Assembly (NCBI GenBank): GCA_016709665.1
Contig: JADJMI010000018.1
Coordinates: forward strand, 3,431-67,430
From: Betaproteobacteria bacterium
Lineage (GTDB): Bacteria; Pseudomonadota; Gammaproteobacteria; Burkholderiales; Usitatibacteraceae
Length of the DNA stretch: 64,000 nt
Direction of reading: 5' to 3'
Below are positions 1 to 40,740 of this stretch, piece after piece. Positions within the stretch are counted from its first letter, which is position 1; each line of letters begins with the position of its first letter. The notes beneath the pieces are model-generated. The model ran no database searches. It had not been told where the DNA came from and saw nothing but the letters and a program-made list of their open reading frames with translations. The position numbers were made by a program, and so were the translations under genes.

Positions 1-1340
1 GCAACATGCTCTGCTATACGGCGGCGGGCGCGGCCGGCGCGGGCAGTTCCAATCTCGCGCTCGGGGGCTTCACCGATTCGATCCCGCTCTACATGTCGGA
101 CCCGGGCAGCGGCAACGAGATCGCGGGCCACCGGCGCTGGATCCTGCATTCGCGCAAGTCGAGCTTCGGTCTCGGGCAGGCTTCGGGCGGCACCAATGCG
201 AACGCGCTCGAGGTCTTCAATTCCGGCGCCGCGGCGCCTTCGCTGCCCAACGGCATCCCGTGGCCTCCGCGCGGCTACGTGCCCCTCGCGATCTTTCCCG
301 CATCCCTTCGCTGGTCGTTCGGCCTGCCGGGCGCCAACTTCGCCGCGGCCAACGTCACGATGAGCGTGAACGGCAACCCGCTCGCGGCCACGGTGATCTC
401 GCGAACCGCCAACGGCTACGGCGACAACACGATCGTCTGGTCGCTGCCGGGCGGGCATTCGGTGACGAAGGGTTCGGTGTACACGGTGGCCATCTCGGGC
501 ATCACCGGCGCGGCCTCGTCCACCTATGCATACGAGGTGCGCCCCATCGACCCCGCGGACACGGTGCTGCCGCCTTCACGCCTGGGGAACATCTCCACGC
601 GCATGCAGGTGCTCACGGGCAACGACGTGCTGATCGGCGGCTTCATCATCCAGGGCGCGGCGGCCAAGCAGGTGGTCGTGCGCGCGCGCGGCCCTTCGCT
701 CGTGCCTTTCGGCATCGCCAACGCCATCGCCAACCCGCGGCTCGAGCTGTACTCGGGCCCGACGGTGATCGCCTCGAACGACGATTGGGGCGCCGCCGGC
801 AACGCCGCGGCGCTGCAGGCGACGGGCTTCGCGCCGTCGAGCGCGCAGGAAGCGGCGATTCTCACCACGCTAGCCCCGGGCGCCTACACCGCGATCGTCT
901 CGGGCGTGGGCAACACGACGGGGGTGGGCATCGTCGAGGTGTTCGAGGTGGACTTGCCCGACTCGCCGCTCGCCAACATCTCCACGCGCGGGCAGGTGCT
1001 CACCGGCAACGACGTGATGATCGGCGGTTTCGTGATCCAGGGGCAGAGCCCGCAGACGGTGGTGATCCGCGCGCGGGGCCCTTCGCTTGCCGCGGCCGGC
1101 ATCCCCAATCCGCTCGCCAATCCGGTGCTGCAGCTCTTTTCGGGGGCGACCGTGATCGCGAGCAACGACGACTGGGGCACGGCGGCCAATGCCGCGATCG
1201 TCCAGTCGAGCGGGTTCGCGCCTTCGAACGCGTTGGAGTCCGCCATCCGGATCACGCTCAACCCGGGGGCCTATACGGCCATCGTCACAGGGACCGGCGG
1301 CGGAACGGGGGTGGGTATCATCGAGGTATTCGCCCAGTAA
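1..1340 (+). CDS. Secreted protein, 5' end cut by window edge; possible CAP/SCP-like head plus C-terminal twin NISTR...EVF module
   Basis: ORF 6..1340 is open to the window edge. Two tandem ~125-aa repeats start at ~578 (LGNISTRMQVLTGNDVLIGGF... then LANISTRGQVLTGNDVMIGGF...) and end GVGIIEVFAQ-stop. The same module recurs in 9 other ORFs here. The head call rests only on a GHRRWIL-type motif and is weak. Confidence 0.8.
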   Translation, partial: NMLCYTAAGAAGAGSSNLALGGFTDSIPLYMSDPGSGNEIAGHRRWILHSRKSSFGLGQASGGTNANALEVFNSGAAAPSLPNGIPWPPRGYVPLAIFPASLRWSFGLPGANFAAANVTMSVNGNPLAATVISRTANGYGDNTIVWSLPGGHSVTKGSVYTVAISGITGAASSTYAYEVRPIDPADTVLPPSRLGNISTRMQVLTGNDVLIGGFIIQGAAAKQVVVRARGPSLVPFGIANAIANPRLELYSGPTVIASNDDWGAAGNAAALQATGFAPSSAQEAAILTTLAPGAYTAIVSGVGNTTGVGIVEVFEVDLPDSPLANISTRGQVLTGNDVMIGGFVIQGQSPQTVVIRARGPSLAAAGIPNPLANPVLQLFSGATVIASNDDWGTAANAAIVQSSGFAPSNALESAIRITLNPGAYTAIVTGTGGGTGVGIIEVFAQ

Positions 1341-1346
1341 CCCCGC

Positions 1347-1514
1347 TGAAGGGGACGCACACCTTCCTGAAGGGGACGCACACATTCAGGGCCCCTGAAG
1401 GGGACGCACACCTTCAGCGCCGGTGAAGGTGTGCGTCCCCTTCAGCTTCGGTGAAGGTGTGCGTCCCCTTCAGGCTTTGCCTAATCCCGGCGCAAGGGGT
1501 AGCGTCCCCCTTGC
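1347..1514. repeat. REP/BIME-like cluster 1: 21-nt hairpin unit TGAAGGGGACGCACACCTTCA, 3 direct + 2 inverted copies plus one degenerate hairpin copy
   Basis: Copies at 1347-1366, 1368-1388 and 1396-1416 (forward) and 1424-1444 and 1452-1472 (reverse). A degenerate GCAAGGGGTAGCGTCCCCCTTGC copy lies at 1492-1514. The unit has self-complementary ends TGAAGG/CCTTCA. The cluster starts 6 nt after the stop of the upstream gene. Confidence 0.9.
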
Positions 1515-1534
1515 CACGAACCCGGAGCCCGCCC

Positions 1535-4455
1535 ATGACGCCCGCCGCCCGTCTCGCCCGAGGTCTCGCATCGATCCTCGCCTGCACGGGCCTCGCCGCC
1601 GCCCAGGCCGCCACCTTCACCGTCACCTCCACGGCCGACAGCGGCGCGGGCACCCTGCGCGCGGCCGTGACCAGCGCCAACGCTTCGCCCGGGTCGGACG
1701 TAATCGATTTCAACCTCGCCGGTTGCCCCTGCACGATCACCCTCAACTCGACGATCACCATCAGCGACACCCTCGACGTCATCGGCCCGGGACGCAACGT
1801 GCTGGTGGTGACCGCCGCCAATAGCGTGCGCCCCTTTACCGCGGGCCTGGCGACGATCCGCTTCCAGGGCCTTCGGTTCGACGGCACGGACAACCTGTTC
1901 GATGGCGGCGTGATCTTCTCGACGGGCGTCGTCGACCTCCTCGACGTGGCGTTCACCGGCAACGCCGGCCGTGACGGCGGGGCCGTCCGTGCCCAATTCG
2001 CCACGATCACCGATTCGCTCTTCGAGGACAATTCCGCCATAAACGGCGGGGCGCTCTGGCTGCTCGCCGGCGGCATCATCCAGAACACCGAGTTCAGGAG
2101 CAACATCTCCGCCGGCCCCGCCATCGGCGGAGGCGCCGTGTACATTGGCGACGGCAGCTCCTCTTTCACCGTCACCGGATCGACCTTCACCGGCAATACG
2201 AGTTCCGAGAACGGTGGCGCGATCTACGGCGGATTGGACAGCCAAATGTCGATCAGCCAATCGACGTTCACCGGCAATTCGGCGCAGCGCTGGGGCGGGG
2301 CGATCATCGCTCTCGGCGGGATGGAGCTCGTCGGCGGCACGCTCAGCGCCAACGTGGCCGGCCTGCGCGGCGGCGCGGTCTACACGGTCCCCACGCGTCC
2401 CGTGAGAATTACCGAGACGATTTTCGAGGCGAACCAGGCCGGCCAGCACGGTGGCGCAGTCTACGGGACCCCGGCGGGGGTCAACATCCTCGACGCGAGC
2501 CGCTCGATCTTCCGGAACAACGTCGCGGGTACCGTCACCGCGACCGGCCAGGGCGGGGCCTTCTACTCGGCGTCCGGCGGGCTTCGCGTCCGCAACTCGC
2601 TCCTCGCGGGGAACACGGCGGCGAGCGGCCAGGGGCTCGCCGTGTGGGGCGGGGGCACCCCGCTCTCGCTCATCCACGTCACGATCGCCAACGGCGGCTC
2701 GACGCTGGCCGGATCGGCGATCACCGCGGCGACGACCCCGATCGATTTCGCGAACAGCGTCGTCGCCGACCACGCGACGGCCCTCACGCTCGCCGCGGGC
2801 AGCGCCGCGCCCGACCGCGTCCTCGTGTGGAACACCGGCGGCCCGGCCCCCGCCTTCGTCGCGCAGGGCGCCGCGACGATCGACACCTCGCTCGTCACGA
2901 CCGGCGATCCCGTCTTCGTGAACGCGGCCGGCGGCGACTACCACCTGGGCGTGGGCTCGGCCGCCGTGAATCTCTCGCCCACCGCGCGCGAAGCTTCGGA
3001 CTACGACGGCGACAGCCGCCCGCAGGGTGCGGGACACGACGCGGGCTTCGACGAGCGCGCGCCGGGCGCCCAGTCGATCACGTTCGCCCCGCTCGCCGAC
3101 CGCCCCGTGAACGATGCGCCCTTCGCCGTCTCGGCCACGGCCTCCTCGGGCCTGGCTGTGACCTTCTCGTCGTCGACGCCCTCGGTGTGCACGGTGTCCG
3201 GCGCCACGGTGACCCTGCTGGCGGTCGGCAACTGCACGGTCGCGGCGAACCAGGCAGGCGACGTTTTCTGGGCGGCGGCGGCGCCGGTGGCGCGTACCTT
3301 CGCGGTGAACAAGCTGGCGCAGTCGATCACCTTCGCCGCCCTCGCCGACCGCACGCTGGGCGACGCGCCTTTCGGCTTGACGGCCACCGCCTCTTCGGGG
3401 CTCGCGGTGACATTCTCGTCCACGACGACCCCGGTTTGCACGGTGTCGGGCGCCACCGTGCGCGCCCGTCGCCAACGGTCGCAGTCGATCACCTTCGCCG
3501 CCGCCGCCGACCCAGCCGGGCGACGCCGGACCCCCGCCTCTTCGGCCGCGCATTCTCGTCCCGACGCGGTTTCACGGTGTCGGGCGCCACCGTGACGCTC
3601 GTCGCCACCGGAACCTGCACCGTCGCCGCCGACCAGCCGGGCGACGCCACCTATCTCTCGGGGGGGGGCGCGGTGGCGAGCGCCAACCCGCCGCGCCTGG
3701 CGAACATCTCCGCGCGGATGCAGGTGCTCGCGGGGGCGGACGTGCTCATCGGCGGGTTCATCATCGGCGGCTCGCAGGCCAAGACGGTCGTGGTGCGGGC
3801 GCGGGGCCCTTCGCTCGTTGCCGCTGGCGTGCCCGATGCACTCGCGAACCCGGTACTGCAGCTCTTCGCGGGCTCGACGCCGGTCGAGGCGAACGACAAC
3901 TGGAAGGAGGCGGTGAACCAGGCGGCCATCCAGTCATCGGGCTTCGCGCCATCGAGCGATTTCGAGTCGGCCATCCTCACGACGCTCGCCCCGGGCGCCT
4001 ACACCGCCATCGTCTCGGGCGCCGGCGGCGGGACGGGGGTGGGGATCATCGAGGTGTTCGAGGTGGACCTGCCGCTCGTGCCGCTCGTCAACATCGCCAC
4101 GCGCGGGAAGGTGCTCACGGATGCCGACGTGATGATCGGCGGCTTCATCGTCCAGGGCGACGGGCCGCAGACGGTGATCGTGCGCGCCCGCGGGCCTTCG
4201 CTCACGGCGGCGGGCGTTCCCGGCGCGCTGCAGGATCCGGTGCTGCAGCTCCTTTCAGGGGCGGCCGTGATCGCGAGCAACGACGACTGGCCGTCGAGCC
4301 CGGATGCGGCCGCAATCCAGTCGGCCGGATTCGCGCCAAGCGACGTGCGCGAGTCGGTGATCCGCATCACCCTGAGCCCCGGGGCCTACACGGCCATCGT
4401 CACGGGCAAGAACGGCACCACCGGCGTGGGTATCATCGAGGTCTTCGCCCAGTAG
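1535..4455 (+). pseudogene. Secreted beta-helix (Pmp/adhesin-like) protein with Ig-like repeats and twin NISTR...EVF module; frame broken at ~3455-3545
   Basis: Signal peptide MTPAARLARGLASILACTGLAAAQA, then TVTSTADSGAGTLRAAV and more than 10 GGA[IVLF][YW] repeats. Three QSITF...VSGATV units follow. The reading frame switches from that of ORF 1451..3595 to that of ORF 2644..4455 within a scrambled repeat junction. The twin module at ~3694..4452 ends GVGIIEVFAQ-stop. Confidence 0.8.
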
Positions 4456-4461
4456 CCATCC

Positions 4462-4538
4462 TGAAGGGGACGCACCCCTTCAGCACCGGTGAATGTGTGC
4501 GTCCCCTTCAGCTTCGGTGAAGGTGTGCGTCCCCTTCA
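4462..4538. repeat. REP/BIME-like cluster 2 (1 direct + 2 inverted copies)
   Basis: TGAAGGGGACGCACCCCTTCA at 4462-4482, with reverse copies at 4490-4510 and 4518-4538. The cluster begins 6 nt after the stop codon at 4455. Confidence 0.9.
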
Positions 4539-4559
4539 GCCTTCAGCTTGAGGAACCCC

Positions 4560-4901
4560 ATGAACACGGACCTCGATTCCCTCTCCACCGCCGATCTCGA
4601 CGCCCTCATCGCCCGCGCCATCCACGCGCGCACGAAGCGAGGCGAGCCGCACCCCGACAAGCCACCCCAGGAATTCGAGGCGACGCTCAACCCGGCGTGG
4701 TTCGTGTTCCTGGCGGGGGCCGACTCGATCGTGCAGTTCCGCCACGCGGGCGCCGGCTGGATCTCGGTGGCCATCCCGCCGCCGGAGCGCGCGCACCTCG
4801 CGACGATGCTCACGCACCACGCGCTGCTCGCCCCGCCGCCGCCCCAGCCGGCGCAGGCGCCGCCATCCCTCGCGAGCGGAGGGGGCGGGAAGGTCCACTA
4901 G
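4560..4901 (+). CDS. Hypothetical small protein (113 aa)
   Basis: ATG at 4560 is preceded by GAGGAA. The ORF track frame runs 4548..4901. The C-terminus is Pro/Ala-rich and I recognise no motif. It converges on the GT2 gene. Confidence 0.4.
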   Translation: MNTDLDSLSTADLDALIARAIHARTKRGEPHPDKPPQEFEATLNPAWFVFLAGADSIVQFRHAGAGWISVAIPPPERAHLATMLTHHALLAPPPPQPAQAPPSLASGGGGKVH

Positions 4902-4907
4902 GAAGGC

Positions 4908-7214
4908 CTACCTCGGCCGGAAGGGCTCCACCCGCGGCGGCCACGCGAGCGTGAAGGGCTCGCCCGACAGCGTGAGGTTCGGGTTGTAGTACGGGTCGTA
5001 CATCAGCTTCGCCATCCAGCGCTCCCGAAGCAGGTCCGCCTCCTTCTGGAAGCGCTTCAACTTCTCCGGCGTGTCCTCGTAGCCGCGCGTGGCGCTCTCG
5101 TGGTGGTAGAGCTCCGCGTAGGGCGTGTAGAGGTTGCGGTAGCCCGCCGCGTCGATCTTCAGGCACAGGTCCACGTCGTTGAAGGCGACGGCCAGCTTCT
5201 CGTCGAACCCGCCCGCCTTCTCGAACACTTCCCGTCGCATCGCGAGGCAGGCAGCCGTCACGCCCGAGAGCGACTGCAGCAGGTTCGCGCGGCTGAAGTA
5301 GCCGTTGTCGCCCTTCGGCTTGCCCAGGTGCGCGTGCGCCGCGAGGCCGGCCACGAGCACGAGGCCCGCATGCTGGATGGTGTCGTTCGGGTACCACAGC
5401 TTCGCGCCCACGCCGCCGATCTCCGGACGCAGCGCGTGCGAGACCATCTCGGCGAGCCACTCCGGCGCGATCACCTCGATGTCGTTGTTCATGAAGACGA
5501 GGATCGCGCCCTTCGCCTGCTTCGCCGCGTCGTTGTTGAGGCGGGAGAAGTTGAAGGGCTTCGGGTCCTTCAGCAGGCGCACCGTGCCCGCCTTCGCGAG
5601 GGCCTCGAAGTAGCGGATGGCGCCCGGGTCGTCGCTGCCGTTGTCGACGAGAAGGATCTCGCGGTTCGCGTAGGTGGTCTTCGCCTGGATGCTCTCGACG
5701 CACTGGCGCACCAGCTTCTCGCCGTTGCGCGTCGGGATGATGATCGAGGCGAGCGGCGGGTCGTCCGGCAGGCGGTAGCGCACGCGCTGCACGGCGACGG
5801 GGACCGTCTCGACGGTCGCGGCGACGCCCCGGCGGTCCAGGTGTTCCTGCACGGCCTTTCGCGCGCGTTCGGCGGCGTAGTCCTTCTCGCCCGCGGCCAC
5901 CGCCGTGCTGCCGACGATCATGCGCCAGTGATAGAGGATGCGCGGGATGTGGCGGATCTGCCGCGCCTCGATCCGCTCGATGAACCGGAGCGCGAGGTCG
6001 TAGTCCTGCGCGCCCTCGAAGCCCTCGCGGAAGCCGCCGATGTCGCGCACGATGTCGGCGCGGTAGACGCCCAGGTGCGTGATGAGATTGTGGGAAAGGA
6101 AGAGGTCCGGGTTCCAGTCGCACTTGAAGTAGGCGTTGGTGCGCTCGCCGTCGAAGCCGAGCTTGTCCTCGTCCGAATAGAGGAGCGCGGCGTCCGGGTG
6201 CTCGTCGATCTCGCGCGCGACCCAGTAGAGGGCGTCGGGCGGGATCGTGTCGTCGTGATCGAGGAGCGCGACGTAGACCCCCGTGGCGAGCGCGAGCGCC
6301 GTGTTGGAAGCGGCGCTGATGTGGCCGTTGCGTTCGCGCCACGCCACCTTGATGCGCGGATCCTTCGTGCGGTATTCCTCCACCACCGCGCGCACGTGCG
6401 GGGCCGTCGAGGCGTCGTCGGCGAGGCACAGCTCCCACTTCGGGTACGCCTGGGCGAGCACCGAATCGATCATCGCCCGCAGGGTCGCCTCCGGCGTGTT
6501 GTAGAGCGGCGTGATGAAGCTGAAGGTGATCGGGCGCGCGAAGGCCGCGGAATCGGCGGCCATCGAAGCGAGCTGCTCGGGCGATGCGGTCGAGAACTGC
6601 CTCACCCAGTCCGGGTAGGCGCCGACGCTCGCGCGGGCATGGTTGGTGAGCGCCCAGAAGGCCGATTCCCACAGGGCCTTCGGGCCACGCGAGAAGAGCA
6701 CCTGCAATCCGAGGCGGAACCACACCCACAGCTGCTTCGGCGAGAGGCGGCCGATCACGCGCGCCATGTCCCGAACCGTGTCGAACCGGCGGTGGTTTCC
6801 GGGCAGTTCGTCGATCGACAGGCCGTCACACGCGAATTCGCAGGGATAGATGCTCGGATCGAAGCGGAAATGGTCGACGCCGTCGGAGATGAGCACCTCG
6901 GCGCGGTAGTACTCGCCGTCGTGCTCGAGCTCCACCGCGCGCGATTCCGCGTAGCCGCCCTTCGGGAAGGGGATGTAGACCCGCGGGCCGGCGAGGCGGC
7001 CGCTGCGCTCCACGATGCGCGTGCGGATCACGTACCAGCCGGGCTTGAGCTTGCCCGTGCCCTTCGGCGGGCGCGCGATGAACGCCGGATCGCTCGATGT
7101 GGCGCGCCAGAAGGCGCCTGCCTGCGACGGGACCCGGACGGGGTCCTTCTTCATCGGGCGGATCGTGAGGTCGAGACTCAAGGGGTGCGCGGGGCCGGAA
7201 TTGTTGCAGCGCAC
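4908..7214 (-). CDS. Glycosyltransferase family 2 protein with two GT-A domains
   Basis: Two GT2 signatures are present: ITFSFITPLYNTPEATLRAMIDSVLAQAYPKWELCLADDAS ... LDHDD, and ASIIIPTRNGEKLVRQCVESIQAKTTYANREILLVDNGSDD ... NNDIEV. The start is either GTG at 7214 or ATG at 7154 (MKKDP). Confidence 0.85.
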   Translation of the reverse strand: MRCNNSGPAHPLSLDLTIRPMKKDPVRVPSQAGAFWRATSSDPAFIARPPKGTGKLKPGWYVIRTRIVERSGRLAGPRVYIPFPKGGYAESRAVELEHDGEYYRAEVLISDGVDHFRFDPSIYPCEFACDGLSIDELPGNHRRFDTVRDMARVIGRLSPKQLWVWFRLGLQVLFSRGPKALWESAFWALTNHARASVGAYPDWVRQFSTASPEQLASMAADSAAFARPITFSFITPLYNTPEATLRAMIDSVLAQAYPKWELCLADDASTAPHVRAVVEEYRTKDPRIKVAWRERNGHISAASNTALALATGVYVALLDHDDTIPPDALYWVAREIDEHPDAALLYSDEDKLGFDGERTNAYFKCDWNPDLFLSHNLITHLGVYRADIVRDIGGFREGFEGAQDYDLALRFIERIEARQIRHIPRILYHWRMIVGSTAVAAGEKDYAAERARKAVQEHLDRRGVAATVETVPVAVQRVRYRLPDDPPLASIIIPTRNGEKLVRQCVESIQAKTTYANREILLVDNGSDDPGAIRYFEALAKAGTVRLLKDPKPFNFSRLNNDAAKQAKGAILVFMNNDIEVIAPEWLAEMVSHALRPEIGGVGAKLWYPNDTIQHAGLVLVAGLAAHAHLGKPKGDNGYFSRANLLQSLSGVTAACLAMRREVFEKAGGFDEKLAVAFNDVDLCLKIDAAGYRNLYTPYAELYHHESATRGYEDTPEKLKRFQKEADLLRERWMAKLMYDPYYNPNLTLSGEPFTLAWPPRVEPFRPR

Positions 7215-7228
7215 ATATTACCGGGCTC

Positions 7229-7361
7229 CGAAGGGGACGCACACATTCAGTTTCGGTGAAGGGGACGCACGCCTTTACCTGTCCTGAAGGTGTGCGTCCC
7301 CTTCAGGGGGCCTGAAGGTGTGCGTCCCCTTCAGGGGGCCTGAAGGTGTGCGTCCCCTTCA
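7229..7361. repeat. REP/BIME-like cluster 3 (2 direct + 3 inverted copies)
   Basis: Copies at 7229-7249 and 7257-7277 (forward, degenerate) and at 7285-7305, 7313-7333 and 7341-7361 (reverse, identical TGAAGGTGTGCGTCCCCTTCA). The cluster ends 5 nt from the stop (7367-7369) of the minus-strand twin-module gene. Confidence 0.9.
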
Positions 7362-7366
7362 GGGGG

Positions 7367-10096: not shown

Positions 10097-11863
10097 CTAC
10101 AGCGCGAACACCTCCACGATGCCCACGCCCGTCCCGCCATCCGAGCCGGTGACGATGGCCGTATAGGCACCGGGTGGCAGCGTGACGAGGATGGCCGCTT
10201 CGAGCGTGTTTCCCGGCGCGAAGCCGCTCGCCGCGACCGCGGCCTGATTGGTCGCCGACTGCCAGTTGTCGTTCACCGCGATCGCGCTCGCCCCCGCGAA
10301 GAGCTGCAGCATCGGGTTGGCGAGCGGGTTGGCGATGCCGGCGGCCGCGAGCGAGGGGCCGCGCGCGCGGACGAGGACCGTTTGCGGCCGCGTGCCCTGG
10401 ATGACGAACCCCCCGATCATCACGTCGTTGCCCGTGAGCACCTGCCCGCGCGTGGCGATGTTGATGAGCGGCATGTCCAGGCGGTCCACCTCGAAGACCT
10501 CGACGATGCCCACGCCCGAGGTGCCGCCCGCCCCGGCGACGATCGCGGTGTAGGCGCCGGGCGCGAGCGTCGCGAGCACCGCGGATTCCTGCGCGTTCGC
10601 CGGCGCGAAGCCCGAGGACTGGATGGCCGCCGCGTTGGCCGCCTGGCCCCAGTCGTCGTTCGTCGCGATCACCGTGGCGCCGGAGACGAGCTGCAGCGTG
10701 GGGTTGGCGAGCGCGTTCGCGATGCCGAAGGGAACCAGCGAGGGGCCGCGCGCGCGCACGACGACCGTCTTGGGCGCGCTGCCGCCGATGATGAAGCCGC
10801 CGATCAGCACGTCGTTGCCGGTGAGCACCTGCATGCGCGTGGAGATGTTCGCGAGGCGCGGGAACGCGGTGGGCGCGGGCACGAGCGCCTGGCCGCTGTT
10901 CGCATCCACCTGCATCGCGTCGGCGTTCACGGCCTCGAAGTTGGCGCCGGCGATGGAGCCGAGCTCGGAGAACACGGCGTCGGGCCAGCTCGCGCTCGAG
11001 ACGCCCTGGAAGAACCAGTTGCTGCCGCCGTCCGCGAGGATGAACCCGTACTTCTTGAGCGCCGTGAGGATGACGCGCGTGGGCTGCGAGTAAGGCGTCA
11101 CGTCGAACGAGGCCTTCAGGCGGAAGCGCGCGCCCATGGGCGGACGCGCGCCCGAGGTGTTCGTGCCCGAGGCGTGGCGGCCGGGCCAGAGGTACTTCTG
11201 GCCGCCGGTGGCCGCGTCGCGTCCCCAGATCTGCACGGCGGTCATGCGGATGGCGTGGGTGATCTCGCCCGCGACCACTTCCTCCCAGCGCACCAGGCCC
11301 GGGAAGATCGGCAGGCCCGCGGCATCGGCGGAGGTCCACCCGGCCTGGCGCAGCGGCCCGTTCGTCTTCAGGTCGAATCGCGCCCAGGACGTGGCGCTCC
11401 AGTTGGTGCCGCCGTTGACCGGGAAGGCCTGGTAGAGCTCGTACAGGATGCAGTTGTTGGTCTCGATCACGAGCACGTGGCGGTCCGCGCCCGAGGGGGC
11501 GCCCAGGCCGCCTTCCACCGGCGCGTCGACCGGGATGGGGAAGGGGACGTTGTCGCTTTCGTCGTCGAAGGCCCCCGCGTTCGGGATGATGAGGGACGCC
11601 GGATGCGCCCCGTTCACCGTGGCGAACGGAATGCCGAAGTTGTCGGCCAGGTTGTTGCCCCAGTCCGCGTGCAGCCGCGCGGTGTTGCCGACGGTGGCCA
11701 CCCAGTCGGTCGAGCGCGGGTGGACCGGCAGCGCGTCGATGGGCGTGTTCCAGTGGTTGTCGGCGGGGAAGACCTGGCACCCGCCGACGGTGGGGGGCGC
11801 GGCGAGGGCCGGCAGCGCGGCGGAGGCGAGCGCGAACAGGGCGCAGAAGCGAAGCGGGATCAT
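10097..11863 (-). CDS. Secreted protein, head domain of unknown function plus twin NISTR...EVF module
   Basis: Signal peptide MIPLRFCALFALASAALPALA. The ~330-aa head (CQVFPADNHWNTPIDALPVHP...) is not recognised. The twin module at ~10100..10860 ends GVGIVEVFAL-stop. Confidence 0.8.
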   Translation of the reverse strand: MIPLRFCALFALASAALPALAAPPTVGGCQVFPADNHWNTPIDALPVHPRSTDWVATVGNTARLHADWGNNLADNFGIPFATVNGAHPASLIIPNAGAFDDESDNVPFPIPVDAPVEGGLGAPSGADRHVLVIETNNCILYELYQAFPVNGGTNWSATSWARFDLKTNGPLRQAGWTSADAAGLPIFPGLVRWEEVVAGEITHAIRMTAVQIWGRDAATGGQKYLWPGRHASGTNTSGARPPMGARFRLKASFDVTPYSQPTRVILTALKKYGFILADGGSNWFFQGVSSASWPDAVFSELGSIAGANFEAVNADAMQVDANSGQALVPAPTAFPRLANISTRMQVLTGNDVLIGGFIIGGSAPKTVVVRARGPSLVPFGIANALANPTLQLVSGATVIATNDDWGQAANAAAIQSSGFAPANAQESAVLATLAPGAYTAIVAGAGGTSGVGIVEVFEVDRLDMPLINIATRGQVLTGNDVMIGGFVIQGTRPQTVLVRARGPSLAAAGIANPLANPMLQLFAGASAIAVNDNWQSATNQAAVAASGFAPGNTLEAAILVTLPPGAYTAIVTGSDGGTGVGIVEVFAL

Positions 11864-21338: not shown

Positions 21339-21346
21339 TCGGGGTG

Positions 21347-26987: not shown

Positions 26988-26988
26988 A

Positions 26989-30382: not shown

Positions 30383-30405
30383 ACGCGAAACCGAGGCTAT
30401 CCCCG

Positions 30406-33400: not shown

Positions 33401-33731
33401 CGACGTGATGATCGCGGGCTTCGTGATCCAGGGCCCGAGCGCGCAGACGGTGGTGGTGCGCGCGCGCGGGCCCTCGCTCGCGCAGGCCGGTGTCGCGCAA
33501 CCGCTCGCCAACCCGCTGCTGCAACTCTTCGCGGGCGCGACGTCGATCGCATCCAACGACGACTGGACCGTCTCGGGCAACGCCGCGGCCATCCAGGCGA
33601 GCGGCTTCGCGCCGCCGAACCCGCGGGAAGCCGCGATTCTCGTGACGCTGCAACCGGGCGCCTACACCGCGATCGTCTCCGGCGTGGGCGGCACCACCGG
33701 CGTGGGCATCGTCGAAGTGTTCATCCCCTGA
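30406..33731 (+). pseudogene. Dual-propeller NHL/IPT secreted protein B with twin NISTR...EVF module; frame break at ~32020-32035
   Basis: Signal peptide MKSTPTRFLAAFLIACAGLARA. The frame of ORF 26989..32826 holds up to GRVFLSQAQ. The protein then continues as ALSWPSHADLRNGQSADVVIG... in the frame of ORF 32130..33731. It ends GVGIVEVFIP-stop. Confidence 0.85.
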
Positions 33732-33835
33732 CCGGCCGATGTCCGCTTCGGCGGCGTGATCGCGTGGGACGAGACAAGGGGATCCGTGCGCGCGCCGGCA
33801 TCCCCGTCCCACGACAACGACAGGAAGCGTTCCCC

Positions 33836-36800
33836 ATGCAATCCCTCATCCGCCGGTTCGCGCCGGGGCTCGTCGCGCTCGCGTGCGCAACCTCCCCGCC
33901 GCTCGCGGCCGCGCCCATCGACGCCATCGCCGATGCGGTGATCGGCAAGCCCGGTTTCGACGCACCGGCGGGCGGCGCTGCCTCGGCCGACAATTTCCTC
34001 CGGCCTTCCGCGCTGGCCGAGGATCCGGTCTCGGGCGAACTCTGGGTCGCCGACGCGAACGCGCACCGGGTGCTGCGATTCGCCTCCGCACGCGCCTTCG
34101 CGAACGGCGAAGCGGCCAACCTCGTGCTGGGGCAGGCGGATTTCGCGGGCGCGGCGCCCAATCGGGGCGGCGCGGCGGGCCCGGGCACGCTCGCCACGCC
34201 GGCGGGACTCGCCGTGGACGGCGCACGGCGCCTGTACGTGTCGGACGCGAACAACCACCGCGTGCTGGTCTTCAAGCCGCCCTACGCCAACGGCATGGAT
34301 GCGTCGAACGTCTTCGGCCAGGGCAATCTCGTGTCGGCCGCGCGCAACCGGAATTCCGGCACGCCCCGCGCCGACGGCCTCGACACCCCGCAGGGAATCG
34401 CGCTGGACCCGGAAGGGCGGCTCTGGGTCGCGGACGGCTTCAACGCGCGCGTCGTGCGGACCTCGGCGCCGGTCACCGTCAACGGGCTCCGCGCGGACGT
34501 GATCCTGGGCCAGCCCTCGGAAGTCTCGAATGCGCCGGCGCTCACCGCCACCGGCATGCGCGTGCCCACCGGCGTCGCCCTGGATCCGGAGGGCAACGTC
34601 TGGGTGGCCGACTTCCTCTGGCATCGCGTGACGCGCTACGCCGCGCCGGCGCCGGGCACGCTCGGCCCGCCGGCCGACCGCGTGCTCTGCCAGCTGGGCC
34701 CGCTGTCCTCGGTCACGGGCGCCGGCGACTCGCGCTGCAACATGCCCACGGGCGTCGCGGTCGATGCGGAGGGCCGGGTCCACGTGACCGACCTGGGCAA
34801 CAGCCGCGTGCTGATGTTCGCCTCGCCGGATCTCGCGCCGATCGCGACGGGCTGGATCGGCCAGGCCACGGCCGACGGCGCGCTCTGCAACGGCGGGGCG
34901 GCGCAGCCGTCGGCGCGGTCGCTCTGCGCTCCCCTCAGCGCGAGCCTCGACCGGCACGGCGACCTGCTGGTGGCGGACTCGGGGAACGGGCGCGTGCTGC
35001 GCTTCGATTCCCCCTTCCTCCGGAACCCGTCGGAGGCGACGAGCCTGAGCCCGTCGACGATCGCGCGCGGCACGGGCGATTTCGACCTCACCGTGAACGG
35101 ATCCGGCTTCTACGGCGACTCCGTGGTGCACTGGAACGGCCAGCCGCGCCCGACGCGCTACGTGAGCGGCGAGCGGCTCGTCGCGAGGATCGCGGGGGCG
35201 GATGTCGCCGCCGCGGGCCACGCCGAAATCCTGGTCATGACGCCCGCGCCGTTCGGCGGCCCGTCGGGCCTGCTGGGTGCATTCATCGCCGATCGCCAGG
35301 CGGGCGACGGGATCGCCGACCTCGTACTCGGCCAGCCCGATCTCTTCGCGAGCGTCGTGCTGAACCGGCGCGTCGGTGCGCAGGCCCTGGGCACGGCGAA
35401 TCCCGCCTCGCTTCCCGCCAACCTGCGGTCCGTCGCGATCGATCCCGCCACGGGGCGCCTTTTCGTCGCCGACGGCCGCGCCCGCGTGCTCTCCTGGCCC
35501 GGCCTCGCGAACCTGCAGAACGGCGAGGCGGCGGACGTGGTCGTCGGCCGGCCCGACGCGTTCACCCTCGACTGCGACGACATGGCGCCCACGGCGACGA
35601 TCGTGTGCGACCCCTGGGGGCTCGCGGTCGACGCGGGCGGGCGGCTCTACGTGTCCGAACCGGCGCGGCATCGCGTGCTGCGCTTCGACCCGCCCCATCG
35701 CACGGGCATGGCCGCCGCCCGCGTCTTCGGGCAAGGCGGTTCGTTCACCACCTTCACGCGCAACAAGGGCGGCATCGGGCCCGGCAGCCTGAGCGAACCG
35801 AGCGGCCTCGCGACGAGCGGCAACCGCCTGTTCATCCATGACGGCGGCAACGCCCGCATTCTCGTGTTCGACGATCCGGATGCCGTCGCGAACGCCAATG
35901 CCGTGATCGGCCAGCCGGACATGGTCACGGCCGCCGTGCAGGCGCCGAGCGCCACGCGCCTGGGTGGCGGGCCCGGGGGGCTCGCGGTGGACCGCGACGG
36001 CCGGCTTTTTCTCGCCGATGGCGCGAACGCTCGCGTCCTGCGCTTCGCGCCGCCTTTCGCGAACGGCATGCCCGCCGATCTCGTCATCGGCCAGGCCGGC
36101 TTCACGACGAACGGCAGCGGGCTTTCGGCCTCGAACCTCCGGTTGCCGGCGGCCGTGGCCGTGTCCCGCGGCGGCGACCTGCTCGTCGCCGACGGCGGCA
36201 ACCATCGCGTGCTGCGCTTCGCCGCGCCGCTCGCGACCGGCATGGCGGCGACGCGCGTGCTCGGCCAACCGGCCTTCAATACCGACATGCCGGTCGCTTC
36301 CCCGGAGGGGCTCGGCACGCCGGTCGGCGTGGCGATCGACGCGGGCGGCAACGTCGTCGTGGCCGATTCGGGCAACGCACGGGTCCTCGCCTACGACCGT
36401 CCCTTCGGCGGGACGGCGCCGTCGCCGGGCCGCGTGGTCAACCTCTCCACGCGCATGGCGGTGCTCACGGGCAACGACGTGATGATCGGCGGCTTCATCG
36501 TCGGCGGCACGCAGCCCAAGCGGGTCGTGATCCGCGCGCGCGGGCCTTCGCTCGCGGCGGCCGGGGTGCCGAACGTGCTGGCGAACCCGCTGCTGCAGCT
36601 ATTCGCGGGGCCGACGCCGATCGCCGCCAACGACGATTGGCGCGTGGCGGCCAATGCCGCCGACGTGCAGGCGAGCGGCTTCGCGCCGTCGAACGACCGC
36701 GAGGGCGCGATCCTCGCGACGCTCGCTCCCGGGGCCTACACCGCGATCGTCTCGGGCGTCGCCGGGACCACGGGCGTGGGCCTCGTGGAAGTCTTCGAGG

Positions 36801-37195
36801 TGGACCTGCCCGCGTCGCCGCTCGTCAACATCGCCACCCGCGGCCGCGTGCTCACGGGCAACGACGTGATGATCGCGGGCTTCGTGATCCAGGGCGACCT
36901 GCCGCAGAAAGTGGTGATCCGCGCGCGCGGGCCCTCGCTCGCGGCCCAGGGCGTGCCGGGCGTGCTCGCCAACCCCTTGCTGCAGGTGCTCTCGGGCGCG
37001 ACGCCCGTCGCCGTGAACGACGACTGGGGACTCGCGGCCAACGCGGCCGCCCTCCAGGCGAGCGGCTTCGCGCCCGCAGACCCGCGGGAGGCCGCGGTCC
37101 TCGCGACGCTCGAGCCCGGCGCCTATACCGCCATCGTCACCGGGGCGGGAAGCACCACCGGCGTGGGCATCGTGGAGGTCTTCGCCATTCCCTGA
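33836..37195 (+). CDS. Dual-propeller NHL/IPT secreted protein C with twin NISTR...EVF module
   Basis: Signal peptide MQSLIRRFAPGLVALACATSPPLAAAP. It has the same architecture as A and B and is intact. The twin module at ~36430..37192 ends GVGIVEVFAIP-stop. Confidence 0.9.
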   Translation: MQSLIRRFAPGLVALACATSPPLAAAPIDAIADAVIGKPGFDAPAGGAASADNFLRPSALAEDPVSGELWVADANAHRVLRFASARAFANGEAANLVLGQADFAGAAPNRGGAAGPGTLATPAGLAVDGARRLYVSDANNHRVLVFKPPYANGMDASNVFGQGNLVSAARNRNSGTPRADGLDTPQGIALDPEGRLWVADGFNARVVRTSAPVTVNGLRADVILGQPSEVSNAPALTATGMRVPTGVALDPEGNVWVADFLWHRVTRYAAPAPGTLGPPADRVLCQLGPLSSVTGAGDSRCNMPTGVAVDAEGRVHVTDLGNSRVLMFASPDLAPIATGWIGQATADGALCNGGAAQPSARSLCAPLSASLDRHGDLLVADSGNGRVLRFDSPFLRNPSEATSLSPSTIARGTGDFDLTVNGSGFYGDSVVHWNGQPRPTRYVSGERLVARIAGADVAAAGHAEILVMTPAPFGGPSGLLGAFIADRQAGDGIADLVLGQPDLFASVVLNRRVGAQALGTANPASLPANLRSVAIDPATGRLFVADGRARVLSWPGLANLQNGEAADVVVGRPDAFTLDCDDMAPTATIVCDPWGLAVDAGGRLYVSEPARHRVLRFDPPHRTGMAAARVFGQGGSFTTFTRNKGGIGPGSLSEPSGLATSGNRLFIHDGGNARILVFDDPDAVANANAVIGQPDMVTAAVQAPSATRLGGGPGGLAVDRDGRLFLADGANARVLRFAPPFANGMPADLVIGQAGFTTNGSGLSASNLRLPAAVAVSRGGDLLVADGGNHRVLRFAAPLATGMAATRVLGQPAFNTDMPVASPEGLGTPVGVAIDAGGNVVVADSGNARVLAYDRPFGGTAPSPGRVVNLSTRMAVLTGNDVMIGGFIVGGTQPKRVVIRARGPSLAAAGVPNVLANPLLQLFAGPTPIAANDDWRVAANAADVQASGFAPSNDREGAILATLAPGAYTAIVSGVAGTTGVGLVEVFEVDLPASPLVNIATRGRVLTGNDVMIAGFVIQGDLPQKVVIRARGPSLAAQGVPGVLANPLLQVLSGATPVAVNDDWGLAANAAALQASGFAPADPREAAVLATLEPGAYTAIVTGAGSTTGVGIVEVFAIP

Positions 37196-37245: not shown

Positions 37246-37368
37246 GCCGATCCTGCGCGACCCGATGTCCGCCACGGACCGGCGACTGCGTGAAACGAGA
37301 GGGAAGCCTCGCGCCCGTTCCGGGCGCGGGGCGAACGCCCGTGCCCCCGGGATGAAAGGCCCGATGCC

Positions 37369-40300
37369 ATGACCGTACGCTGGATCCTTCGCCTGCTGCT
37401 GTCGTTGTCGATCGTCACGATGGCGATGGCGACGTCCTGTTCCTCGCAGGCGGCGGCGCTCGATGCCGTGCCCGACGCCGTGCTCGGCAAGCCGGACTTC
37501 GTGACGCCGGCCGGCGGCGCGGCGTCGTCGACGAACCTCTTGCGCCCCGGAGGGCTCGCCGAGGATCCGGTGTCCGGGGAGCTGTGGGTCGCGGATCCCG
37601 GGGCGAACCGCGTGCTGCGCTTCGCTTCCGCGAGGGCCTTCGCGAACGGCGAGGCCGCGAACGCGGTGCTGGGCCAGGCCGATTTTTCCGCGTCGGCGGC
37701 CAACCGGGGCGGCCCGGCCGCGGCCGGAACGCTCGCTCGTCCCTCGGCCCTCGCGGTGGACGCGGCCCGGCGCCTCTACGTCGCCGACACCGGCAATCAC
37801 CGCGTGCTCGTCTTCGGGCCGCCCTATGCCGACGGCATGGCCGCGCGCGTGGTCGTGGGGCAGGACGATTTCGCCGGAGCCCTCGCCAACCGCGGCGCGC
37901 CCGCGCCGACGAGCGAGAGCCTCGCGGCGCCCCAGGGACTCGCGCTCGATCTCGTCGGCAACCTCTGGGTGGCGGATACCGGCAATGCGCGCGTCCTGCA
38001 GTTCTCGGGATACATCGAAGGCCAGAACCGTTCGCCCGACGGCGTCCTCGGGCAGCCGGGATTCACGACGGCGGCGGCGAACCTCACGGCGCGCGGCCTT
38101 TCCGCGCCGGTGGGCCTGGCGATCGACGGCGATTCCCACCTCTGGGTCGTGGATCGGGGCCACCACCGCGTCCTGAAATATCCGCCCACGCCGCTCCTCA
38201 CGACGAACGCCGCGGCCGTGGGCGTGCTGTGCCAGGGCGACTTCGTCACGGCCGTGTCCGCGACATCGGCGACGGGGTGCCTCGCGCCGGCCGGCGTCGC
38301 CATCGACGGGGAAGGCCGCGTGCACGTGACCGATTCGGGCAACCATCGCGTGCTGCGGTTCGACGCGCCGGCCCCGGGCGCGGCGGCCGATGCGATCCTC
38401 GGGCAGGCGCTGCCGGGCGACGGGGCGTGCAACCGCGGCGCCATCGCCCCGACGGATCTTTCGCTTTGCGGGCCGTCGTCGCTGGGCGTGGACCGCCGCG
38501 GCAACCTGCTGGTCGCGGACGGCGGCAACGGGCGCCTGCTGCGCTACGACATTCCCGTGCGCCGCGCCCGGCCCGTGGCGCGCGCCACGAGCCCCGCCGC
38601 GCTGGCGAGGAACTCGCCGGGCGCCACGCTGACGGTCGACGGCGAACGGTTCACCGACGATGCGGTGGTCCTCTGGAATGGCCTGCCGCGGCCGACACGG
38701 TTCGTGTCGGCCCACCGCCTGCTGGCGGACCTGCCGGCCGCCGACGTGGCCGTGGCCGGGCCCCACGCGGCGCGCGTCGTCACGCCGGCGCCGGGGGGCG
38801 GCGAGAGCGCGGATGCGCTCGTCGTGGACACCTACGAGCGCGCGCCCTTCGACGCCGCGGCCGACGGCGTGCTGGGCCAGCCCGGTTTCGCGAGCGGCTT
38901 GGCGCTGAACCGCTCGGTCGGTGCCGGGCAGGTGGGCTTCTTCAACGCGTCGAGCCTGCATGACCTGATGCATTTCGTGACGATCGACCCGGTCACGGGG
39001 CGGGTCTTCGCGAACGACGCCTGGGCCGGCCGGGTGCTGTCGTGGCCGAACATCGCCGCGGTGCGCGACGCGCTCCCCGCGGACGTGGTGATCGGCAAGC
39101 CCGACGCCTTCGCGTCGCAATGCGACTTCCTCGCGCCCACGGCGAGCGAACTGTGCGACGCCGCGCAGGTGGCGATCGACGAGGCGGGCCGGCTCTACGT
39201 GGCGGAATCGATCCGCCATCGCGTGTTGCGCTTCGACCCGCCCTTCGCGACCGGGATGGCGGCCTCGCGCGTGTTCGGCCAGGCGGGCTCGTTCGCGACC
39301 GGCGAATCGAACCTCGGGGGACTGGGCCCGGCGAGCCTCGATTCGCCTTCCGGCCTCGCCGTTCACGGCCGGCGCCTGTTCATCCTGGACGGCGGAAACA
39401 TGCGGATCCTCGTGTACGACGATCCCGATGCCCGGCTCGCCGCGGACGCCGTCATCGGCCAGGCGGATTTCGCGTCGGCCGGCTTCGCGCCGGCGAGCGC
39501 CACGCGCTTCCGGTCCCCGTACTCGGGGCTCGCCACCGATCGCGAGGGGCGCCTGTTCCTGGCGGATTCCCACGCGAACCGCGTGCTGCGCTTCTCGCCG
39601 CCGTTCGCGAACGACATGGCCGCGGACCTCGTCGTCGGCCAGGCGAACTTCACCGGCACGGGCGCCGGCCTGTCGGCCTCCCGGTTCGACTTTCCCTGGG
39701 CCGTCGCTCTCGACGAATCCGGCGCCCTCCTCGTGGCCGACCGGAACAACCATCGGGTGCTGCGCTTCCCGGCGCCGTTGTCGGACGCGATGGCCGCGAC
39801 GGGCGTGCTCGGCCAGGCCGGGTTCGGCACGGGCGTGCCGTCCGCGACCTCGCGCACCAGCCTCCTGCACCCCGTCGGCATCGCCGCCGACAAGCAAGGC
39901 AACGTGGTGGTGATCGACTCGGGACGCTCGCGCATCCTCGCCTACGACCGGCCCTTCGCGAGCGCCGCCGCGCCGGGCCGCCTCGTCAATCTATCGACGC
40001 GCATGTCGGTGCGTACCGGGGACGACGTGCTGATCGGCGGCTTCGTGATCGGCGGGACGCAGCCGAAGAACGTCGTGCTGCGCGCGCGCGGGCCTTCGCT
40101 CGCCGGCGTGGGAGTCCCGAATGCCCTGCTGGATCCGGAGCTGCGGCTTTTCTCCGGGCAGACCGTGATCGCCGCGAACGACACCTGGAGCGCCGCGCCG
40201 AACGCGGCCGCGATCGAGCTGGGCGGCTTCGCGCCGAACCACTCGCATGAAGCGGCGATCCTCGCGAGGCTCGCCCCGGGCGCCTACACCGCGATCGTGT

Positions 40301-40740
40301 CGGGCGTGGGCGGCACGACGGGCGTGGGACTCGTCGAGGTGTTCGAGGTGGACGTTCCCGCCTCGCCGCTCGCCAACATCGCCACGCGCGGAAACGTCCG
40401 GACGGGAAGCGACGTGATGATCGCCGGCTTCATCATCCAGGGGGAGACGCCGCAGACCGTCGTGATCCGCGCGCGCGGCCCCTCGCTCGCGCCCTTCGGC
40501 TTCGCCGAGGTCCTCGCCGATCCCGTCCTGCAACTCTTCTCGGGCGCGACGCCGATCGCCACGAACGACGACTGGTCGCTCGCGGCCGATGCGCCGGCCA
40601 TCCTGGCGAGCGGCTTCGCGCCGGCCCACGCGCGGGAAGCCGCCATCCTCGTCACCCTCAACCCCGGCGCCTACACCGCCATCGTCTCGGGCGCCGGCGG
40701 TACCACCGGCATCGGGTTGGTGGAAGTGTTCGCGCGCTAA
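37369..40740 (+). CDS. Dual-propeller NHL/IPT secreted protein D with twin NISTR...EVF module
   Basis: Signal peptide MTVRWILRLLLSLSIVTMAMATSCSSQAAA (possible lipobox-like TSC). It has the same architecture as A-C. The twin module at ~39975..40737 ends GIGLVEVFAR-stop. Confidence 0.9.
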   Translation: MTVRWILRLLLSLSIVTMAMATSCSSQAAALDAVPDAVLGKPDFVTPAGGAASSTNLLRPGGLAEDPVSGELWVADPGANRVLRFASARAFANGEAANAVLGQADFSASAANRGGPAAAGTLARPSALAVDAARRLYVADTGNHRVLVFGPPYADGMAARVVVGQDDFAGALANRGAPAPTSESLAAPQGLALDLVGNLWVADTGNARVLQFSGYIEGQNRSPDGVLGQPGFTTAAANLTARGLSAPVGLAIDGDSHLWVVDRGHHRVLKYPPTPLLTTNAAAVGVLCQGDFVTAVSATSATGCLAPAGVAIDGEGRVHVTDSGNHRVLRFDAPAPGAAADAILGQALPGDGACNRGAIAPTDLSLCGPSSLGVDRRGNLLVADGGNGRLLRYDIPVRRARPVARATSPAALARNSPGATLTVDGERFTDDAVVLWNGLPRPTRFVSAHRLLADLPAADVAVAGPHAARVVTPAPGGGESADALVVDTYERAPFDAAADGVLGQPGFASGLALNRSVGAGQVGFFNASSLHDLMHFVTIDPVTGRVFANDAWAGRVLSWPNIAAVRDALPADVVIGKPDAFASQCDFLAPTASELCDAAQVAIDEAGRLYVAESIRHRVLRFDPPFATGMAASRVFGQAGSFATGESNLGGLGPASLDSPSGLAVHGRRLFILDGGNMRILVYDDPDARLAADAVIGQADFASAGFAPASATRFRSPYSGLATDREGRLFLADSHANRVLRFSPPFANDMAADLVVGQANFTGTGAGLSASRFDFPWAVALDESGALLVADRNNHRVLRFPAPLSDAMAATGVLGQAGFGTGVPSATSRTSLLHPVGIAADKQGNVVVIDSGRSRILAYDRPFASAAAPGRLVNLSTRMSVRTGDDVLIGGFVIGGTQPKNVVLRARGPSLAGVGVPNALLDPELRLFSGQTVIAANDTWSAAPNAAAIELGGFAPNHSHEAAILARLAPGAYTAIVSGVGGTTGVGLVEVFEVDVPASPLANIATRGNVRTGSDVMIAGFIIQGETPQTVVIRARGPSLAPFGFAEVLADPVLQLFSGATPIATNDDWSLAADAPAILASGFAPAHAREAAILVTLNPGAYTAIVSGAGGTTGIGLVEVFAR

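Follow-up and report, generated by a model that had tools for sequence, protein, structure and literature searches.

A twin C-terminal module with a predicted PPC/collagen-binding-domain fold on ten exported proteins of a Usitatibacteraceae genome

Introduction

The closest described relatives of the protein module reported here are small β-sandwich domains at the ends of secreted proteins. One is the s3a-s3b tandem of the collagenase ColG from Hathewaya (Clostridium) histolytica (compared here through structures 5iku, 1nqj, 2o8o, and 3jqw), in which two β-sandwiches of ∼115 to 120 aa occupy the extreme C terminus; the tandem reportedly binds its collagen polymer bivalently and is Ca2+ stabilized. 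Another is the pre-peptidase C-terminal (PPC) domain (Pfam family PF04151; 5sv5, Pseudoalteromonas protease E495, Myxococcus FibA), which has the same fold, is C-terminal and often duplicated, and belongs to Sec-exported proteins. E495 binds protein substrates through its two C-terminal PPC domains, which also make the enzyme catalytically more efficient on proteins (PMC3327674), and the PPC pair of FibA accumulates in the extracellular matrix and the spore cuticula (PMC3236237). Here we describe a module that occurs as a C-terminal pair, the twin module, on ten exported proteins encoded in a 64,000-nucleotide stretch of contig JADJMI010000018.1 (positions 3,431 to 67,430, forward strand; assembly GCA_016709665.1), from a genome assigned to the Usitatibacteraceae. 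This whole stretch is referred to as the window. An earlier, sequence-only reading of the window had regarded the module as a candidate cargo tag for sorting or anchoring and as one of unrecognized kind.

Compared with the ColG tandem, to which its sequence identity is 9 to 14%, the twin module is found in Gram-negative soil bacteria and not in clostridia, and the regions preceding it (heads) are mostly not collagenases. Unlike PF04151 domains, it forms a fixed pair with position-specific subtypes, is joined mostly to nonprotease heads, and occurs also at the N terminus. The logic of one terminal module placed on many exported heads, with clustered and expanded genes, is shared with the C-terminal domains (CTDs) of the type IX secretion system (T9SS), with PEP-CTERM/exosortase substrates, with dockerin-cohesin, and with SLH domains. 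However, the twin module has no sequence or structure match to these, no transmembrane (TM) helix or basic tail, no obligate position, and no dedicated partner that we could find. We conclude that it is a new sequence family, unnamed by Pfam, within the predicted PPC/collagen-binding-domain (CBD) fold, and that it is unlike an ordinary PPC domain in sequence, pairing, and cargo. Both the fold and the logic were already known.

Twenty module copies form ten C-terminal pairs

Scanning all six frames of the 64-kb window with a motif regular expression and a hidden Markov model (HMM) revealed exactly 20 copies of the module, each of 119 to 122 aa. They make up 10 head-to-tail pairs at the C termini of 10 proteins, all within positions 588 to 40731, and neither scan found a copy in the remainder of the window. 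The same arrangement of 10 tandem pairs had been proposed in the sequence-only reading, whose coordinates agree with the scan positions to within a few bases. Alignment of the 19 intact copies gave a mean column identity of 74% with 35 invariant columns, and the conserved blocks named earlier proved correct (NISTR, GGF, RARGPSL, NP, NDDW, GFAP, E, PGAYT, and G.G..E.F). Invariant polar residues include N1, R5, RARGPSL, NDDW, E88, and E117; judging from conservation, N1, N64/D65, E88, and E117 are candidate Ca2+ ligands. In PPC/CBD-fold domains, the Ca2+ site is built from acidic residues of a loop and the N-terminal linker. NISTR was considered as an N-glycosylation sequon and ruled out, since many copies have NIATR at this place.

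Each of the ten pairs closes its reading frame, with 2 to 3 residues after copy 2 followed by the stop codon. The ending had been described as an invariant EVF-x-x-stop, and the short tail is indeed present in all ten; EVF itself is found in 8 of 10 copies, with one EAF and one EIF, and the tails past the last β-strand read AQ, AL, IP, AR, AIP, AQP, or LQ. Because copy 1 has the same EVF end inside the protein, this ending is just the final β-strand of the final domain. An outer-membrane-protein-like C-terminal signal was likewise ruled out, given that copy 1 ends internally in the same strand and that the Phe is not terminal.

The ten tagged proteins and their heads

Gene boundaries were set from a GC3 frame plot and by reading of the N termini; the module copies given in brackets are those located by the two scans. 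A signal peptide of typical Sec type is present at all nine N termini that lie inside the window (genes 2 to 10), just as had been stated for every visible N terminus.

On the plus strand, gene 1 (positions 3 to 1340) has its 5′ end cut by the window, and its head without recognized family precedes a twin module at 579 to 1337 (588 to 944 and 975 to 1331). Gene 2 (1535 to 4455) encodes a Chlam_PMP/right-handed β-helix and Ig-like repeats, with the twin module at 3694 to 4452 (3703 to 4059 and 4090 to 4446). The next four tagged genes lie on the minus strand. Gene 3 (7367 to 9955) has five InlB B-repeat (Flg_new_2) domains and a twin module at 7370 to 8137 (7376 to 7741 and 7772 to 8128), and gene 4 (10097 to 11863) has a widespread unnamed head of ∼300 aa and a twin module at 10100 to 10858 (10106 to 10462 and 10493 to 10849). 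In gene 5 (11941 to 13885) the head is a PQQ glucose/sorbosone dehydrogenase (GSDH), with the pair at 11944 to 12705 (11950 to 12309 and 12340 to 12696); in gene 6 (14022 to 16856) it consists of 11 NHL repeats, with the pair at 14025 to 14795 (14034 to 14399 and 14430 to 14786). The gene 6 product is 944 aa long as called on a 99%-identical public contig.

Genes 7 to 10, again on the plus strand, encode four paralogous dual NHL propellers with TIG domains, as assigned by Pfam. Their coordinates are 27058 to 30382 for gene 7 (NHL propellers with TIG; twin module at 29623 to 30379, copies at 29632 to 29988 and 30019 to 30373), 30406 to 33731 for gene 8 (likewise with TIG; 32970 to 33728, copies at 32979 to 33335 and 33366 to 33722), 33836 to 37195 for gene 9 (36431 to 37192, copies at 36440 to 36796 and 36827 to 37183), and 37369 to 40740 for gene 10 (39979 to 40737, copies at 39988 to 40344 and 40375 to 40731). 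Gene 10 also has a choice-of-anchor Z repeat, a type of repeat recognized by scanning one dual propeller against NCBIfam.

The heads had been called unrelated, and Pfam confirmed most of them, with the NHL head of gene 6 having 11 repeats. The exception is the head of gene 1 (3 to 578), earlier labeled CAP-like, which matched nothing in Pfam or NCBIfam, so that the label could not be verified. The head of gene 4 (10859 to 11863, minus strand) also lacks a Pfam or NCBIfam family. It is a very common secreted domain of ∼300 aa with at least 8,000 matches in many phyla, and it may represent an unnamed enzyme family. Elsewhere it stands alone or is fused to dockerin, SLH, FN3, TIG, PKD, or Flg_new_2 modules, and the pair therefore fills a slot used by accessory binding or anchoring domains.

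As a separate observation, the twin-module DNA of genes 7 and 8 (29550 to 30400 versus 32900 to 33750) is 95 to 96% identical, whereas the propeller DNA just upstream is ∼73% identical. This difference points to a recent gene conversion that was probably limited to the tag in these adjacent dual-propeller genes.

Sequence libraries and predicted fold

The sequence-only reading had proposed an HMM search of Pfam, InterPro, and CDD. Scanning of Pfam gave nothing, and scanning of NCBIfam gave one borderline family. Pfam had zero matches, PF04151 included, both for the window pairs (E ≤ 1) and for six diverse single modules (E ≤ 10), and a search of PDB sequences with the module profile returned noise alone (E ≥ 0.16). 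The only library model with a significant match was NCBIfam NF038127, “DVUA0089 family protein” (FDP_fam). Five window pairs scored 47.4, 40.8, 35.4, 33.1, and 20.0 bits against its cutoff of 29 bits, with four of the five above it. Pairs exceed this cutoff because two copies sum: single modules reached 24.1 or 21.9 bits or gave nothing. The matches span mostly profile positions 48 to 109 of 150, and NF038127 was not listed for a full-length protein of 992 aa. We thus read the module as a probable distant relative of NF038127 and not as a member. DVUA0089 itself is mentioned in the literature only as a target of σ54/DVUA0057, within an exopolysaccharide and biofilm regulon (PMC4641369), and a description of the module was not found in the literature on DVUA0089, on PPC domains in Verrucomicrobia, or on choice-of-anchor.

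AlphaFold2 produced all-β models for both the pair (pLDDT 87.4, pTM 0.74) and the single module (pLDDT 88.3, pTM 0.82). When the single module was compared with the PDB by Foldseek, the top match was the PPC domain of a B. anthracis collagenase (5sv5; E = 1e-5, probability 1.0, TMq 0.61/TMt 0.68, root mean square deviation 3.5 Å). Further matches were ColG s3b (1nqj, 2o8o), the ColH CBD (3jqw), and 2luw, with TM scores of 0.6 to 0.68 against 5sv5 and ColG s3b; the C-terminal domain of C. perfringens enterotoxin, GOLD domains, and the C-terminal domain of Vibrio vEP were also found. For the pair model, the best PDB match was the tandem ColG s3a-s3b itself (5iku, E = 8e-8). Capsid jelly-rolls as well as GOLD domains stand in the Foldseek lists. 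According to these models, the module is predicted to have the PPC/CBD β-sandwich fold, which replaces the earlier view of a module of unrecognized kind. In its fold it comes close to the ordinary PPC/CBM-type domain that the sequence-only reading had named as the outcome that would speak against a tag, but its sequence family is distinct and absent from Pfam.

The earlier statement that the module has no TM or basic tail and corresponds to no known sorting tag was borne out by Pfam, NCBIfam, and structure. T9SS CTDs gave no Pfam or NCBIfam match and were not among the structural matches, and N-terminal pairs exist (see below); Betaproteobacteria and Verrucomicrobiota, to which most twin-module hosts belong, are not known to have a T9SS. 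With regard to a PEP-CTERM/exosortase or sortase tag, the window proteins end 2 to 3 residues past the strand, with no hydrophobic segment. The window proteins gave no match to the dockerin family PF00404 either, and the module model is all-β.

Distribution and architecture beyond the window

A word-seeded search with one pair gave at least 8,000 candidates, and the module profile matched 18,143 clusters (50% identity) at E ≤ 1e-3 and 8,609 clusters at E ≤ 1e-30 among 1.84 billion representatives. In GTDB species representatives we confirmed at least 585 module loci, the best 80 of which were analyzed in detail. These 80 loci all come from metagenome-assembled genomes (MAGs). Carriers among them are Usitatibacter and other Betaproteobacteria, a Lysobacter-labeled MAG, Gemmatimonadaceae, and Acidobacteriota; further carriers are many Chthoniobacterales/Udaeobacter, Nitrospirota, Competibacteraceae, and a Flavobacterium MAG of 42% GC. 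Relative to the window pair, identity declines from 75% to 46 to 54% in other phyla.

The pair is the prevailing arrangement, with two copies in 236 of 264 proteins, four in 22, three in 5, and five in 1. Among the best representatives, 139 of 144 end no more than 5 aa past the last module, and in the 80 loci, which contain 126 module open reading frames (ORFs), the tails measure 2 to 4 residues in 100 of 120 cases and vary in their residues (AQ, AR, xVP, LQ, and others). The two subtypes in fixed order, described earlier for the window, are real there, and their order is kept in homologues: the first copy is closer to the copy-1 profile in 319 of 341 cases (94%), and the second is closer to the copy-2 profile in 249 of 345 (72%). 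Since these features are kept across phyla, we regard the pair as what appears to be an ancient unit, moving as a whole. Tagged genes also lie close together: the window has 10 of them within 40 kb, and single 12-kb loci elsewhere have as many as 4.

The observation of one constant C-terminal pair behind varied Sec-exported heads thus holds widely outside the window. That the pair is always C-terminal does not, since N-terminal pairs also occur. They lie right after the signal peptide, either in four-copy proteins that have both an N- and a C-terminal pair or in proteins whose only pair is N-terminal and is followed by CHRD plus DUF1800 or by cadherin plus M43-like regions. Heads found elsewhere include DUF11, He_PIG, Big_3_5, FN3, Kelch, RHS, ASPIC/UnbV, plastocyanin, classical PPC arrays, and metzincin proteases, the last of these preceding the pair in members of the Verrucomicrobiota. 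Three proteins (P0028, P0036, and P0109), complete and encoded on long contigs, are nearly cargo-less: apart from signal peptide and pair they have only ∼45 residues, and the pair can therefore itself be the payload.

A very large protein is encoded at positions 1 to 6774 of locus L019 (CP170502.1, a complete Pseudomonadota MAG genome). It exceeds 2,250 aa and unites at least 13 repeats of the classical PPC type with thrombospondin-type-3-like Ca2+ repeats and, at the C terminus, the twin module; a single protein can therefore contain both classical PPC domains and the twin module.

With over 18,000 clusters (50% identity) and no fewer than 585 GTDB loci, the module is a very large family that is unnamed in current Pfam. 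In soil lineages that are abundant yet poorly cultured (Udaeobacter/Chthoniobacterales and Usitatibacter), it marks a substantial share of the proteins predicted to be exported. A model for it would better annotate thousands of “hypothetical” proteins and flag them as exported and probably surface or matrix associated. Three features offer testable handles on the organization of extracellular enzymes: the fixed pairing, the occasional placement at the N terminus, and the recurrent extracytoplasmic function (ECF) sigma factor/kinase neighbors described below. No new principle is involved, since fold and logic had both been described before, and the value of the module lies chiefly in annotation and in the exported proteomes of uncultured soil bacteria.

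A proposed binding or anchoring role and its alternatives

Because the precedents of PPC pairs (E495, FibA, and ColG) point to binding and localization, we favor the reading that the pair would be a bivalent binding or anchoring unit for its cargo, which we hold to be on balance probable. Each of the ten proteins is predicted to be exported via the Sec pathway and to end in a rigid pair of ∼120-aa PPC/CBD-fold β-sandwiches. Shuffled onto many heads (propellers, PQQ dehydrogenase, β-helices, Ig arrays, and the verrucomicrobial metzincin proteases), the pair, possibly Ca2+ stabilized, would attach the head to a polymeric target shared by these proteins, which might be cell-surface or matrix material or an insoluble substrate. 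By analogy with the C-terminal PPC/CBD pairs of ColG (s3a-s3b), E495, and FibA, a binding function is the most likely one; it is inferred, as are the kind of ligand and any Ca2+ role, whereas the copies and their place, the signal peptides, the fold, the distribution, and the architectures are results of the analysis. The anchoring or lectin-like half of the earlier proposal fits the fold; for its secretion-signal or sorting half we found no positive evidence.

Several observations weigh against a bivalent binding unit. Besides the missing match to PF04151, an hhalign comparison of the module profile with one PPC sequence (the PPC domain of P0090) was insignificant, at a probability of 3.5%, though it aligned the NDD and G-Y-T motifs as expected. 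The module also shows no clear counterpart of DxDxY, the PPC motif whose residues are reported to be important for the binding by E495. The ∼50% identity between betaproteobacterial and verrucomicrobial copies, together with the near-universal tail of 2 to 4 aa, is tighter than in most accessory binding domains, and such tight constraint could instead reflect a single conserved partner. Among the heads, PQQ dehydrogenase, plastocyanin, and DUF1800 are usually periplasmic, so that more than one compartment is conceivable as the place where the pair acts.

Alternatively, the pair might be a pre-peptidase-style C-terminal extension that aids folding, secretion (for example, recognition by a type II system), or latency and is cleaved after export. 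The fold family is named for exactly such behavior, E495 exists in forms with two, one, or zero PPC domains (PMC3327674), and FibA releases its PPC pair (PMC3236237); moreover, metzincin proteases precede the pair in Verrucomicrobiota, and the hosts found are all diderms, with no exporter found nearby. We nevertheless consider this role rather unlikely, as most heads in the window are not peptidases, N-terminal pairs and the nearly cargo-less proteins fit it poorly, and inspection of the window sequences revealed no conserved cleavage motif in the linker between head and pair. A purely passive function, as a stabilizing cap, spacer, or self-association domain with no specific ligand, seems to us highly improbable. 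It is true that β-sandwich repeats often act as spacers, that GOLD domains and capsid jelly-rolls are among the Foldseek matches, and that the PPC fragment of FibA may form a layer (PMC3236237), but a spacer needs neither a terminal place nor strict pairing nor 35 invariant columns with polar residues.

The constraint noted above is the main attraction of a third possibility, namely, that the pair is a dockerin-like or sorting cargo tag and that one conserved receptor, scaffold, or processing machine encoded elsewhere displays or exports the tagged proteins. Conservation is strong across unrelated heads (74% column identity) and phyla (48 to 62%), the position is nearly always terminal with tails of 2 to 4 aa, and the tagged genes cluster. 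Furthermore, NHL and choice-of-anchor Z heads carry PEP-CTERM-type anchors in other lineages, to judge by NCBIfam names, and a secreted protein of ∼180 aa follows pair genes with two different heads at nine loci in three phyla. Yet pairs are also found at the N terminus; TM segment, lipobox, and cleavage motif are lacking; Foldseek gave no structural match in the PDB to T9SS CTDs or dockerins; and the residues of the tail vary. The nearly cargo-less proteins and the other modules that the head of gene 4 carries in the same slot also speak against a tag, and neighbors are common to at most 9 of the 80 loci, with the ∼180-aa protein absent from the window. On this evidence we judge such a tag unlikely. 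We likewise doubt, to the same degree, that soil diderms (Usitatibacteraceae, Chthoniobacterales/Udaeobacter, Gemmatimonadota, and Acidobacteriota) possess an undescribed dockerin-like system for display or sorting whose handle is the twin module, with the ∼180-aa protein as candidate receptor and the ECF sigma factor/kinase pair as switch. The tight conservation, the terminal position, and the occurrence of the ∼180-aa protein in three phyla keep the idea of a partner alive. A dedicated secretion or sorting machine is probably not involved, as nothing was found in its support and the data argue against an obligate C-terminal signal. The binding or anchoring unit thus remains the reading that we prefer.

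Neighboring genes across loci

Clustering of the neighbor ORFs of the 80 loci revealed no universal partner gene, and real clusters comprised at most nine loci. One neighbor cluster spanning 70 loci was rejected as a partner: its members are most likely spurious ORFs that overlap the module in other frames of GC-rich DNA, as we infer from its representative, a run-off frame of 3,350 aa.

The secreted protein of ∼180 aa (TTVIPPSFDELV...GTVT...) is encoded directly 3′ of twin-module genes whose heads are metzincins or β-helices. Its carriers are Verrucomicrobiota, Usitatibacter, and Gemmatimonadaceae, and it has no match in Pfam, NCBIfam, or the PDB. It is encoded at L009:4081-4848, L014:6603-7445, L022:2505-3371, L023:1797-2465, L029:6800-7480, L031:6819-7448, L037:6274-6810, and L040:6847-7470 (locus and positions within it).

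Gene context and candidate regulation in the window

The minus-strand tagged genes belong to a run with short gaps, in the order TctC, IlvD, NHL-pair, GSDH-pair, unknown-pair, InlB-pair, and a dual family 2 glycosyltransferase (GT2) gene (4908 to 7214, minus strand), which is the last gene of the run. A link between this glycosyltransferase and the module is conjecture. On the plus strand, the order is amidohydrolase, Lgt, Amidase_2, ECF sigma factor, Ser/Thr kinase with TPR, NHL protein, the four dual-propeller-pair genes, and patatin. The ECF sigma factor (Sigma70_ECF, PF07638) is ∼180 aa long and is encoded at 21950 to 22495 (plus strand, start approximate); it is paired with a Hanks-type Ser/Thr kinase with TPR repeats (22450 to 25269, plus strand). 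The NHL-repeat protein (25395 to 26987, plus strand) has no twin module and lies directly upstream of the four dual propellers. An ECF sigma factor/kinase pair embedded in the cluster had been noted before and is present, but the ORF then taken for the sigma factor is in fact the Amidase_2 gene, frameshifted at 21629, followed by the 180-aa sigma factor gene.

A pair of an ECF sigma factor (PF07638) and a Hanks kinase with TPR adjoins pair genes in 8 of the 80 loci (L007, L011, L018, L021, L027, L036, L041, and L071). These eight come from the Lysobacter-labeled MAG, Acidobacteriota, and Chthoniobacterales, and together with the window they suggest that the regulatory link to twin-module genes is a recurrent one. 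Adjacency of an ECF sigma factor and a Hanks kinase is the hallmark of group ECF43 (PMC13147305), in which a motif containing Thr takes the place of DxxD in σ2.2. The two genes are adjacent in the window, and the σ2.2 motif of the window sigma factor is DTRS where ECF43 has the consensus QTTA (PMC13147305).

We also observed a bipartite motif, TGTCCG(C/G)-N15-GCGTGRRAC, which occurs five times in the window, against 0.47 expected, and always on the plus strand. Two occurrences (33740 to 33770 and 37266 to 37296) lie upstream of dual-propeller genes, and another (25324 to 25354) lies upstream of the untagged NHL gene. Of the remaining two, one (22506 to 22536) closely follows the stop codon of the sigma factor gene and lies inside the kinase ORF at its predicted 5′ end; the other (40887 to 40917) closely follows the last dual-propeller gene and lies inside the patatin ORF, likewise at its predicted 5′ end. 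We regard the motif as a candidate promoter element for the neighboring ECF sigma factor; a search of the other loci, among them the eight that have ECF sigma factor/kinase pairs, did not recover it.

Frame breaks in the window

The reading frame is broken at at least six places in the 64 kb (∼3515 to 3570, ∼13115, 21629, ∼30111, ∼32019 to 32037, and ∼52200), affecting 4 of the 10 tagged genes. Gene 2 is broken at ∼3515 to 3570, gene 5 at ∼13115 in a run of GC dinucleotides, and gene 8 at ∼32019 to 32037. In gene 7, copy 2 of the module (30019 to 30373) is split by loss of 2 bp in a (CG)n tract at ∼30111, as seen by alignment to the 94%-identical paralogue at 33366 to 33731. For two of the breaks, the site is a (CG)n tract coding for GAR or for the RAR of RARGPSL. 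A public contig of 15.9 kb, JAHZTR010009271.1, is 99.08% identical to positions 13980 to 28553 of the window, and the only indel by which they differ is one additional C in the window, at 21629, which breaks the Amidase_2 gene that is intact in the public contig; the latter reaches none of the four frameshift sites in tagged genes. A DrmD-like helicase gene near 52200 is also split, and frame breaks are thus not confined to tagged genes. Since untagged genes are broken too (21629 and ∼52200), the frameshifts are likely assembly errors, or else they mark slippage-prone sites, and we advise against a biological interpretation of them.

Other features of the window

A 21-nucleotide element (CTGAAGGGGACGCACACCTTC) is present in 16 copies, compared to 0.01 expected, in direct and inverted clusters that resemble REP/BIME elements. 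The clusters are intergenic, at 1346 to 1473, 4461 to 4539, 7228 to 7362, and 21263 to 21339, being located 3′ of three tagged genes and near Lgt and the amidase gene. The region from 48000 to 64000 has a lower GC content (58 to 63%) and forms a defense island. It contains the split DrmD-like SNF2 helicase gene (50872 to 52807), a type III restriction-modification pair (Mod, 53640 to 56825; Res, 56825 to 59701), and, on the minus strand, DarT (61434 to 62084) and DarG (60352 to 61446).

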